Source of the DNA: Escherichia coli
Lineage (GTDB): Bacteria; Pseudomonadota; Gammaproteobacteria; Enterobacterales; Enterobacteriaceae
Length of the DNA: 64,000 nucleotides
Reading direction: 5' to 3' (one strand)
Assembly: GCF_016026235.1 (NCBI RefSeq)
Contig: NZ_CP065613.1
Position numbers: made by a program. Shown in pieces: positions 15,001 to 18,000 of this stretch. Within the stretch, counting starts at the first letter, position 1. Each line of letters starts with the position of its first letter.

Positions 15001-18000
15001 ACTTCACCCCGCTGTGTCTGCTTTTCCCGACTATTCTTAATGAGCTTCGATGCAATTCACGATCCCGCAGTGTGATTTGAGGAGTTTTCAATGGAATATA
15101 AAGATCCAATGCATGAGCTGTTGAGCAGCCTGGAACAGATTGTTTTTAAAGATGAAACGCAGAAAATTACCCTGACGCACAGAACAACGTCCTGTACCGA
15201 AATTGAGCAGTTACGAAAAGGGACAGGGTTAAAAATCGATGATTTCGCCCGGGTTTTGGGCGTATCAGTCGCCATGGTAAAGGAATGGGAATCCAGACGC
15301 GTGAAGCCTTCAAGTGCCGAACTAAAATTGATGCGTTTGATTCAAGCCAACCCGGCATTAAGTAAGCAGTTGATGGAATAGACTTTTATCCACTTTATTG
15401 CTGTTTACGGTCCTGATGACAGGACCGTTTTCCAACCGATTAATCATAAATATGAAAAATAATTGTTGCATCACCCGCCAATGCGTGGCTTAATGCACAT
15501 CAACGGTTTGACGTACAGACCATTAAAGCAGTGTAGTAAGGCAAGTCCCTTCAAGAGTTATCGTTGATACCCCTCGTAGTGCACATTCCTTTAACGCTTC
15601 AAAATCTGTAAAGCACGCCATATCGCCGAAAGGCACACTTAATTATTAAAGGTAATACACTATGTCCGGTAAAATGACTGGTATCGTAAAATGGTTCAAC
15701 GCTGACAAAGGCTTCGGCTTCATCACTCCTGACGATGGCTCTAAAGACGTGTTCGTACACTTCTCTGCTATCCAGAACGATGGTTACAAATCTCTGGACG
15801 AAGGTCAGAAAGTGTCCTTCACCATCGAAAGCGGCGCTAAAGGCCCGGCAGCTGGTAACGTAACCAGCCTGTAATCTCTGCTTAAAAGCACAGAATCTAA
15901 GATCCCTGCCATTTGGCGGGGATTTTTTTATTTGTTTTTCAGGAAATAAATAATCGATCGCGTAATAAAATCTAGTATTATTTTTGTGAAAAATAAATTT
16001 GGGTGCAATGAGAATGCGCAACGCCGTAAGAAAGGCGGGAATAACTTCCCGCCGAAGACTCTTACTCTTTTAAATTGCAGGCTAAAAATGCCGCCAGCTC
16101 ATAACTCCCCTGTTTAATATGCAATTCACACAGTGAATCTCTTATCATCCAGGTGAAAAATAAAAGCGTGAAACAAATCACTATTAAAGAAAGTAATCTA
16201 TATTTCTGCGGCATTCCCAGCCCCCTGTGTTGATTTCCAACGAGTAAGAGGCTAACCTTATGGTGTTCAGGCATAGGGTAGCCTCACTTTGATTTATAGT
16301 CAGGTGGGGCTTTTCTCTGTCTGCCTTTCGGTGAATACCTGAGACAAACAGTCTCAAGCACCCGTGGCTATTCTAGCTTAATAAGTTTGTTTCTTCTCCT
16401 TGATATAATCCTAAAAAAACCTCATAAAATTAATATATGAGATAATCTTTATTCAGCAGAAGATTATTAAAGGTTGCTGTATTATTTAGCGATAATAAAA
16501 AAAGCCTGCCAGATGGCAGGCTTTTTAATAACGGCGTTATTACTGCAACAGCGAAATATCCGCAACGCGCAGGAACAGTTCGCGCAGTTTCTCCAGCATG
16601 GTCAGACGGTTGATACGCAATTCTTTGTCATCAACCATTACCATCACTTTATCGAAGAAAGCATCAACCGGTTCACGCAGCTCAGCCAGTTCGACCAGCG
16701 CATCCTGGTAACGACCTTCCGCAAAGTACGGCTCCAGCTTGTCACGTAGCACCACAACCTGCATCGCCAGTTTAATTTCTTCCGGCTCTTTCAGGGTAGA
16801 GGCATTCACGCGATCGCTCAGCACTTCGTCAGATTTCGCCAAAATGTTGGAGACACGCTTGTTCGCCGCCGCCAGTGCAGCAGCTGCTTCAAGGGTACGG
16901 AAGTGCGATACCGCTTTCATGCGGGCATCGAAATCAGCCGGACGAGTCGGACGACGCGCCAGTACCGCCTGGATGGTGTCAACGGTATAACCTTCGTCCT
17001 GATACCAGGCGCGGAAGCGACCGAGCATAAAGTCGATAACATCATCAACTACGTTGGCATTAGTCAGCTTATCGCCATACAGACGCACCGCTTCTTCGGT
17101 TAGCGTTTGCAGATCAAGGTTGAGGTTCTTCTCAACGATAATTCGCAGCACGCCAAGTGCGGCACGACGCAGCGCAAACGGGTCTTTGTCGCCTTTCGGA
17201 TGCTGACCGATACCGAAGATACCCGCCAGAGTATCCATCTTATCAGCAATCGCCAGCGCACAAGCTACCGGGTTGGACGGCAGGTCATCACCGGCAAAGC
17301 GCGGCTGATACTGCTCATTCAGCGCGACGGCTACGTCTTCCGCTTCGCCATCGTGACGCGCGTAGTGCATCCCCATAACGCCCTGGGTGTCGGTGAACTC
17401 GAAGACCATGTTGGTCATCAGGTCACACTTAGACAGCAGGCCCGCACGGGTTGCGTGGTTAACGTCAGCGCCAATCTGTTCGGCGATCCAGCCAGCCAGC
17501 GCCTGGATGCGGTCAGTCTTGTCACGCAGCGTACCCAGCTGTTGCTGGAACAGCACGGTTTGCAGGCGCGGCAGGTTATCTTCCAGACGTTTTTTGCGGT
17601 CGGTGTTGAAGAAGAACTCGGCATCAGCCAGACGTGGACGAACGACTTTCTCGTTACCAGAGATAATTTGCTGCGGATCTTTCGATTCGATGTTGGCAAC
17701 GAAGATAAAGTTCGGCAGCAGTTTGCCGTCGTTCGCATACACCGGGAAGTACTTCTGGTCACCTTTCATGGTGTAAACCAGGGCTTCAGCCGGCACCGCG
17801 AGGAATTTCTCTTCAAATTTCGCGGTTAGAACGACCGGCCACTCCACCAGCGAAGCCACTTCTTCCAGCAGGCTTTCGCTTAAGTCAGCGTTACCGCCAA
17901 TCTTACGCGCTGCTTCTTCGGCATCGGCTTTAATCTTCGCTTTACGTTCTTCGTAATCGGCGATGACTTTCCCGCGCTCACGCAGAATTTCCGGATACTG

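Follow-up and report, generated by a model that had tools for sequence, protein, structure and literature searches.

The closest described relatives of the locus examined here are the hok/mok/sok (parB) system of plasmid R1, the hokA/sokA locus of E. coli C and the hokA/mokA/sokA remnant of E. coli K-12 MG1655 (b4455, b4647 and b4614), where the annotation treats mokA and sokA as pseudogenes. The R1 system mediates post-segregational killing (PSK), whereas hokA of E. coli C reportedly does not. The latter was cloned and characterised in 1999 (Pedersen & Gerdes 1999, Mol Microbiol 32:1090, as cited in later papers), and both the IS-free hokA locus and the arrangement of its regulatory elements date in the literature from that year and are not new. 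In the present analysis, a 64,000-nt stretch of E. coli contig NZ_CP065613.1 (the window) was found to carry, on the minus strand between cspA and glyS (approximately 16410-15996), what appears from its sequence to be a complete hokA/mokA/sokA type I toxin-antitoxin locus without IS150. With a probability of about 0.95, the region is considered to be the chromosomal hokA/mokA/sokA locus of E. coli in its uninterrupted, ancestral form. The features of the locus and its flanks are as follows.

15662-15929, plus strand: cspA coding sequence and terminator, next in line beyond the 3' end of hokA (ORF list)
15996-16363, minus strand: predicted full-length hokA mRNA, about 368 nt (ends predicted)
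16001-16013, minus strand: fbi (fold-back inhibition), UCUCAUUGCACCC, which pairs with tac
16034-16053, minus strand: 3' UTR GC hairpin, GGCGGGAAGUUAUUCCCGCC (terminator-like scan; pair probabilities 0.9-1.0)
16062-16214, minus strand: hokA toxin ORF, 50 aa (profile matches and translation; annotated as WP_001135738.1 in identical loci)
16062-16274, minus strand: mokA frame, 70 aa, which reads in phase with hokA and ends at the same stop codon (ORF list, translation)
16230-16258, plus strand: predicted sokA promoter, with -35 TTGATT (16230-16235), a 17-nt spacer and -10 TAACCT (16253-16258) (read from the sequence)
16248-16285, minus strand: mok SD/dcb (sokT) hairpin, a 38-nt imperfect palindrome with the mok Shine-Dalgarno (SD) and ATG (Rfam sok alignment, gap in the K-12 alignment)
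16265-16320, plus strand: predicted SokA antisense RNA, about 55 nt, with a 5' tail, terminator stem (16281-16312) and U-run (fold and K-12 annotation)
16304-16312, minus strand: ucb (anti-SD), AAGCCCCAC, which pairs with the mok SD region (nt 53-60/77-84) in the full-length fold
16333-16363, minus strand: metastable 5' hairpin of the nascent transcript, nt 1-31 (13 bp, -17.2 kcal/mol in the fold)
16352-16363, minus strand: tac, GGGUGCUUGAGA, at the mRNA 5' end, which pairs with fbi in the full-length fold and with ucb in the truncated fold
16370-16375, minus strand: predicted -10 box of the hokA mRNA, TAGAAT (read from the sequence, position predicted)
16499-16526, minus strand: glyS terminator hairpin (terminator scan)

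Profile searches with the 50-residue product of the toxin ORF gave 81.9 bits for Pfam PF01848 (HOK_GEF; cutoff 22) and 131.9 bits for the NCBIfam HokA equivalog NF007290 (cutoff 89), bearing out an earlier sequence-only reading in which the Hok frame was described as intact. The protein has cysteines at positions 14, 29 and 46, including the C29 and C46 that are conserved in Hok/Gef toxins, and differs from K-12 HokA by E36G and K47N. Upstream of it, the leader matches the Rfam sok family (RF01794; 16212-16363, minus strand) with 124.9 bits (gathering score 59; E = 9e-30). Over 666 bp the window is 100% identical to hokA-annotated loci of many E. coli genomes, and its position between cspA and glyS, together with this near-identity, identifies it as the hokA orthologue; a locus annotated hokA was found in 5425 of 5426 complete E. 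coli genomes. On the cspA side, the Rfam cspA thermoregulator model scored 501 bits across 15502-15929, whilst on the other side the glyS terminator hairpin sets the hokA promoter apart from glyQS transcription. Short ORFs and end pairing can occur randomly, and 7 of 200 mononucleotide shuffles also closed their ends with at least nine pairs, such that the ORF and folds could be supposed to be accidents of AT-rich intergenic DNA, with no hok locus present. That supposition has next to no probability, however, being effectively refuted by the equivalog-level protein match, the Rfam sok E-value, the stability of the predicted full-length mRNA (minimum free energy [MFE] of -139.8 kcal/mol; z = -8.14 relative to 100 dinucleotide-shuffled sequences) and the conservation of the annotated locus. 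Details that count against the preferred reading of a complete hokA locus are the hok SD, which is AGGGGG in the window and AGGAGG in other alleles, and the very poor -35 of the predicted hok promoter.

The layout of the locus parallels that of R1 in most respects. Both have a Hok/Gef toxin, a mok leader frame with GAGG seven nucleotides before the AUG, a cis-antisense Sok, matching promoter layout and a terminator built from the ucb/SD stem, and in both the mRNA ends pair through tac and fbi, a metastable hairpin forms at the 5' end and the truncated RNA finishes at a GC hairpin. Conversely, the hokA locus is chromosomal and present in single copy, and whereas R1 mok lies in a different frame from hok, mokA is in frame with hokA, and therefore its product would be an N-terminally extended Hok. 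The mok frame has its own SD (GAGG, 16282-16285) seven nucleotides from the ATG (16272-16274) and runs for 70 codons through hokA, and the stop codon is likewise common to mokA and hokA in the K-12 pseudogene annotation; by analogy with R1, translational coupling between mokA and hokA is putative. The pairing tac/fbi segments are GGGUGC/GCACCC in hokA as opposed to GGCGC/GCGCC in R1, with changes on both sides and pairing kept, and polymorphism at the locus within the species is too sparse for covariation testing.

A generic consensus promoter scan of the window called neither the hok nor the sok promoter, and both were placed through R1 homology. The predicted +1 G of the hokA mRNA is at 16363, 7 nt 3' of the -10 box, a geometry that matches the TATGAT-6 nt-G promoter of an R1-like hok locus, and the promoter looks weak because its predicted -35 (GAGAAG, 16393-16398) is poor. 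The predicted sokA promoter, which shows no variation across alleles, is laid out in parallel to the TTGCGC-17-TATCCT sok promoter of the R1-like locus and is followed by a stem and U-run terminator, both on the plus strand between 16230 and 16320; the predicted RNA is complementary to the mok initiation region. The predicted SokA folds with -24.8 kcal/mol; its 5' end was set from R1 geometry, and its 3' end agrees with the annotated K-12 sokA remnant (3722077-3722111, equivalent to window 16286-16320). A figure of 52 nt is given in the literature, as cited, for the SokA target.

For folding, the 5' end of the hokA mRNA was set by the start of the Rfam model and R1 homology, and the 3' end was placed a few nucleotides past fbi. 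The 368-nt full-length transcript is predicted to close with an 11-bp 5'/3' helix (nt 1-6/358-363 and 8-12/351-355, probabilities 0.85-1.0), an outcome that the proposed tac/fbi folding check had called for, and 5'/3' closure was present in 7 of 7 alleles folded; the same program recovered the known tac/fbi closure in the control R1-like hok locus. The fbi element is kept in K-12 and in all examined alleles save for one G-to-A change in strain S21EC. In silico, ucb is paired with the mok SD region in the closed form, tac/ucb pairing marks the open form, in which the SD/dcb hairpin would also form, and the metastable 5' hairpin forms in the nascent RNA. With transcripts of 336 nt or less the MFE structure changes to tac/ucb pairing, and the forced SD/dcb hairpin lies merely 0.5 kcal/mol above the MFE of the truncated RNA. 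Three conformers of the truncated RNA fall within 0.7 kcal/mol of one another, and so the switch is not proven by thermodynamics alone; a closed-to-open switch of the hokA mRNA is nevertheless plausible in these models. The 3' UTR GC hairpin, which has GGCGGGCGCAGGCCCGCC at the equivalent site of the R1-like locus, appears to be the counterpart of the stem-loop that ends truncated R1 hok mRNA. Taken at the level of sequence and modelled folds, the predicted promoter, tac, metastable hairpin, ucb, mok and hok SD and ATG, SD/dcb, 3' UTR hairpin, fbi, and the sokA promoter and terminator are all present, which supports the expectation that the complete mRNA context may be preserved. Neither of the disabling changes named beforehand, mutation of the mok ribosome-binding region or missing tac/fbi pairing, was found in the locus.

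A mechanism can be proposed by homology with plasmid R1 hok/sok, with sequence and folding as its support here. A weak promoter would give rise to a stable hokA mRNA of about 368 nt, in which tac at the extreme 5' end would be bound to fbi at the 3' end and ucb would mask the mok SD; the full-length RNA would therefore escape both translation and Sok binding. Gradual trimming from the 3' end as far as the GC hairpin would remove fbi, upon which tac would pair with ucb and free the mok SD/dcb hairpin. Translation of mok, coupled to that of hokA, would then follow unless SokA, a short-lived RNA of about 55 nt from the opposite strand, paired first and led to RNase III cleavage. The HokA product would be a 50-aa peptide that damages the membrane. 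For this strain, the ends of the mRNA, its processing from the 3' side, the half-life of Sok and the coupling of mok to hok are inferred.

Comparison with K-12 clarifies what that strain lacks. The K-12 remnant occupies the same site, its hokA ORF is intact and its fbi and 3' UTR hairpin are identical to those in the window, as is the promoter/tac/ucb segment adjoining glyS. The annotation puts IS150 (1443 bp; 3720633-3722075) in the gap from hokA/mokA to the sokA remnant, by glyS and hence 5' of hokA on the coding strand, and the element enters after the position equivalent to window 16246. It stands in place of the 38-bp SD/dcb hairpin with the mok ATG, the sokA -10 and the Sok 5' end; the entry point falls within the sokA promoter spacer, the -10 is missing, and the lesion leaves mok and hok cut off from the promoter, tac and ucb. 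In the window, no IS150 end sequence was found with up to three mismatches permitted, and the distance from the hokA ATG to the glyS stop is 325 bp as opposed to 1727 bp in K-12, which upholds the proposed absence of IS150. The sequence-only reading had, however, taken this absence from the short cspA-hokA interval, supposing that in K-12 the element lies 3' of hokA, between it and cspA, and removes the 3' fold-back element. The interval, estimated at about 190 bp, was indeed measured at 187 bp from the cspA stop to the hokA stop, but the K-12 spacer is equal (186 bp) and therefore uninformative on IS150. Beyond the absence of IS150 from the window and its presence at the K-12 locus nothing favours that model, and the K-12 annotation, the alignment, with fbi retained and the SD/dcb hairpin and sokA -10 deleted instead, and the spacer lengths refute it, leaving it practically no chance of being correct.

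The IS150-free leader is the majority state, at 2803 of 5426 complete E. coli genomes. IS150 interrupts the hokA leader in approximately 48% of complete genomes, in two distinct configurations, the K-12 type being present also in ATCC 8739. Configurations were classified by the left-hand break point (query 372 vs 417); the right-hand break point (query 106 vs 107) was discarded as a classifier after junction reading showed both configurations mixed. In both, insertion falls within one 45-bp stretch of the mok-SD/sokT hairpin region and the toxin ORF is spared, and the second is found at one and the same 3-bp target in two different alleles of the hairpin. Literature searches on hokA with IS150, hokB with IS150, and sokA yielded nothing useful on IS150 targeting.

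The locus of E. coli C (reference record NZ_CP020543) has the same cspA-hokA-glyS site, lacks IS150, encodes the same HokA protein and is identical to the window over 16020-16363, i.e. leader, mok, sok and hokA. One substitution and a 1-nt indel at 16018/16019 separate the two 3' UTRs, in the segment from the GC hairpin to fbi, and a few more differences lie outside the transcript at 15977, 15991, 16388 and 16420 and in the glyS terminator region; these differences leave the predicted fold unchanged. A 2026 preprint reports of E. coli C hokA/sokA neither PSK nor activation by rifampicin, and states that HokA is toxic upon overexpression and has no need for RNA editing, since both cysteines are encoded. 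Secondary sources conflict on activity, in that Faridani et al. (2006) describe the hok/sok loci of ECOR strains as active. The suggestion that the toxin in the window could be functional thus stands as regards intact elements but was overstated, the IS-free form being the majority allele; with the E. coli C locus already characterised and reported negative, it is an old question with, in the sources cited, a largely negative published answer.

It could be supposed that the native locus releases HokA upon loss or titration of SokA, during transcription arrest, phage infection or stress, and kills or arrests the cell, and that the recurrence of IS150 reflects selection to silence it. The intact regulatory elements, the reported toxicity of overexpressed HokA, the activity ascribed to ECOR loci and the presence of IS150 in the leader of nearly half of genomes, in two separate arrangements that each leave the toxin ORF untouched, would all fit. 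Set against these are the negative reports from the near-identical E. coli C locus and the apparently very weak hok promoter, whilst recurrent insertion may merely mark an IS150 target hot spot. On balance this is unlikely, and killing by the native single-copy locus is doubtful; the fuller proposition that in wild E. coli the IS-free hokA acts as a toxin module both active and costly, which IS150 has silenced repeatedly, is less likely still. Were it true, the implication would be either that the intact locus is selected against or that hok leaders contain a structure-specific hot spot for IS150.

With the preferred reading, that of an uninterrupted chromosomal hokA locus, the finding matters little except for correct annotation. 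The window holds what is, by all predicted elements, a complete hokA/mokA/sokA module that is absent in K-12, and the K-12 pseudogene calls for mokA and sokA are therefore not transferable to this strain. Strains that carry this allele are well suited to the study of what chromosomal hok loci do.

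The 665-bp intergenic region between cspA and glyS contains, on the minus strand, a 70-codon open reading frame (16274-16062) whose last 50 codons encode HokA (MPQKYRLLSLIVICFTLLFFTWMIRDSLCELHIKQGSYELAAFLACNLKE), with scores of 81.9 bits against Pfam HOK_GEF and 131.9 bits against the NCBIfam HokA equivalog (cutoff 89). From the 5' end of the mRNA up to the AUG of hokA, at 16363-16212 (-), the leader fits the Rfam sok model RF01794 with 124.9 bits (gathering score 59). A sequence search of the whole 64-kb window revealed no IS150 end sequences, which, together with the profile matches, bears out the sequence-only reading's claim of an intact Hok frame free of IS150. 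The locus is very probably a hokA/mokA/sokA module that is complete in sequence and shares the architecture of R1 hok/sok (probability about 0.95). Element positions were assigned by pattern search, with a plasmid-borne R1-like hok/sok locus as the reference; every cis element is present and in place, in keeping with the earlier suggestion that the complete mRNA context may be preserved.

Gene order and predicted elements of the hokA locus (window positions; transcript ends are presumptive)
15091-15381, +, yiaG
15662-15874, +, cspA
16001-16013, -, fbi, UCUCAUUGCACCC
16034-16053, -, 3' UTR GC hairpin, GGCGGGAAGUUAUUCCCGCC
16062-16064, -, hokA stop, UAA
16212-16214, -, hokA AUG
about 16221-16226, -, hok SD, AGGGGG
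16230-16235 and 16253-16258, +, predicted sokA promoter, TTGATT, 17-nt spacer, TAACCT
16248-16285, -, SD/dcb (sokT) hairpin, 38-nt imperfect palindrome
16272-16274, -, mok AUG
16282-16285, -, mok SD, GAGG, then 7 nt
16304-16312, -, ucb, AAGCCCCAC
16333-16363, -, metastable 5' hairpin, nt 1-31
16352-16363, -, tac, GGGUGCUUGAGA
16363, -, hok mRNA +1, G
16370-16375, -, hok promoter -10, weak, TAGAAT
16540-18609, -, glyS

The features named beforehand as speaking against function, namely mutations in the mok ribosome-binding region and missing tac/fbi pairing, were not found at the locus. SokA, presumably unstable, is predicted to start approximately 7 nt past its -10 box and to terminate in the stem 16281-16312 plus UUUUCUCU; this puts its 3' end at 16320, where the annotated K-12 sokA remnant also ends, and its length at ∼55 nt, in line with a published figure of 52 nt for the SokA target. 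The sokA promoter parallels that of R1 sok (TTGCGC-17-TATCCT), and the tac/fbi sequences, GGGUGC/GCACCC here versus GGCGC/GCGCC in R1, have changed on both sides with pairing kept. Unlike in R1, mokA is in frame with hokA, and mok translation would therefore yield a 70-aa N-terminally extended Hok, with mok-hok coupling presumed.

Two annotation details of the neighbourhood were also recorded. PGAP calls the gene at 15662-15874 (+; WP_000014594.1) 'cspE' in all RefSeq records that were inspected, a naming quirk, since the K-12 record and a match to the Rfam cspA thermoregulator model (15502-15929, +) identify it as cspA. Antisense to the hokA 3' end lies a mini-ORF (16014-16073, +; 'hypothetical protein' in PGAP) homologous to K-12 ysaE (23 aa) but cut to 19 codons, because the base changes behind HokA K47N also introduce a stop into it.

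The contrast with K-12 required revision. IS150 had been placed 3' of hokA, but the annotated order in MG1655 (cspA, ysaE/hokA/mokA(pseudo), IS150 at 3720633-3722075, sokA(pseudo), glyS) puts it between hokA and glyS, and hence upstream (5') on the hokA coding strand. The short cspA-hokA spacer of ∼190 bp was confirmed on measurement (187 bp from stop to stop), but fails as a sign of absent IS150: the same distance is 186 bp in K-12 and is therefore uninformative, whereas the hokA ATG and the glyS stop lie 325 bp apart in the window and 1727 bp apart in K-12. Nor does the K-12 insertion remove the fold-back element, as had been supposed, since alignment with IS150 removed showed fbi and the 3' UTR hairpin to be identical to those of the window. 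Missing from K-12 in this alignment, exactly at the IS150 position, are 38 bp (window ∼16247-16285) forming an imperfect palindrome with the mok Shine-Dalgarno, mok ATG, sokA -10 box and Sok 5' end; in K-12, mok and hok are thus cut off from their promoter, tac and ucb, and sokA is destroyed. Because the 38-bp hairpin has its homologue in the SD/dcb hairpin of R1, the IS150-free leader must be the ancestral state.

Megablast with the 666-bp interval gave matches in 5425 of 5426 complete E. coli genomes, contiguous in 2830, and a leader-spanning 221-bp probe was contiguous in 2803 (51.7%), such that the IS150-free leader is the majority state among complete genomes. Many of them, O104:H4 strains included, match the window at 100% identity and have hokA annotated. 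IS150 occupies the leader in ∼48% of the genomes, in two configurations (window 16246-16291; loci L002, L003, L010, L014, L015 and L016 from other genomes). The K-12 type (about 27-30%; + orientation) enters after 16246, with loss of the 38-bp hairpin and without target duplication. The second (∼17%; - orientation) inserted simply, duplicating CTT (3 bp) at 16288-16290, and is found on two different hairpin alleles. The two configurations suggest either a hot spot or repeated silencing. IS150 insertions in hokB/sokB reportedly recurred in Lenski's long-term lines too, and a preference of IS150 for hok leaders may therefore be appreciated already.

Further variants were observed among the compared loci. 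The mok-SD/dcb hairpin (16248-16285) has two alleles of its 5' arm, GAGGCUACCCUAUGCCUGA versus GAGGCCCCUCUAUGCAUAG (compared with L005, L008 and L009); the seven differing positions are clustered, lack compensating 3'-arm changes, and alter stem strength as well as the N-terminus of MokA and the 5' tail of SokA. In VL7S7 (about 3068-5250 of that locus) IS1 truncates a K-12-type IS150 at hokA and the locus does not resume until the hok promoter region, with the tac/ucb leader lost. S21EC has a 1-nt deletion directly before the hokA ATG that puts mokA and hokA out of register, a G-to-A change in fbi that loses one tac/fbi pair, and a full-length MFE of -119.7, ∼20 kcal/mol weaker.

All folding was conducted in silico. 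For the 368-nt transcript (16363 to 15996) the MFE is -139.8 kcal/mol (z = -8.14 versus 100 dinucleotide shuffles), and the tac/fbi complementarity that the sequence-only reading had proposed to check is predicted, in both MFE and ensemble, as end pairing of nt 1-6/358-363 and 8-12/351-355 with probabilities of 0.85-1.0. The same program recovered the known tac/fbi closure of an R1-like mRNA; at least nine end-to-end pairs also arose in 7 of 200 mononucleotide shuffles, a crude control. In the full-length fold ucb is paired with the mok SD region, and the hok SD/AUG is occluded by pairing with codons from the hokA 3' part. Nucleotides 1-31 fold into the metastable structure, a hairpin of 13 bp. 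With the mRNA cut to 336 nt or less (GC hairpin end), the MFE shifts to a tac/ucb stem with the SD freed, as would suit the 3' processing and refolding switch that we infer, although the conformers are nearly isoenergetic (SD/dcb hairpin +0.5 and closed form +0.7 kcal/mol over the MFE).

Among other features of the window, a chaperone-usher fimbrial cluster (892-4781, -; usher 857 aa, PapD-like chaperone 232 aa, fimbrial subunit 178 aa), which may be lpf-like, had no counterpart in the inspected ATCC 8739 and E. coli C stretches of the neighbourhood. A 443-aa DDE_Tnp_1 transposase ORF (5103-6434, -), from an IS other than IS150, adjoins an MFS transporter ORF (6418-7665), with a slight overlap. 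Between yiaJ and yiaT, the site of the yiaK-yiaO/lyxK/sgbHUE operon in ATCC 8739, the window has instead (37768-41158, +) genes for a 466-aa MFS sugar transporter and a 667-aa GH127 beta-L-arabinofuranosidase-like protein. Rfam matches above gathering score to naRNA4 (63.3 bits, 41149-41227, +) and ES036 (50.3 bits, 35886-35928, -) look REP-like or intergenic, with no relation to hokA.

The allele itself is close to one already studied. E. coli C (NZ_CP020543) has cspA, hokA and glyS without an IS, an identical HokA (WP_001135738.1), identity over 16020-16363, and the same predicted 5'/3' closure, differing only at 16018/16019 (3' UTR) and, beyond the transcript, at a few further sites. Toxin identity, cis-element placement, predicted pairings, population frequency and near-identity to this tested allele are what the analysis establishes. 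According to later papers, the E. coli C hokA/sokA was described by Pedersen and Gerdes (1999), and hokA (E. coli C), hokB (K-12) and hokC (ECOR24) showed no post-segregational killing and no rifampicin response, for which reason those authors regarded chromosomal hok loci as inactive. The same sources describe HokA overexpression as toxic, and HokA as independent of A-to-I editing since both cysteines are encoded. A 2006 paper with Gerdes as co-author states in a passing remark that ECOR loci 'are active', and the conflict with the negative tests stands. Native activity, with killing upon loss of SokA, is considered unlikely because the published tests were negative. The locus is real but ordinary, a well-known, majority IS-free hokA, and the functional question raised for it was addressed experimentally back in 1999.
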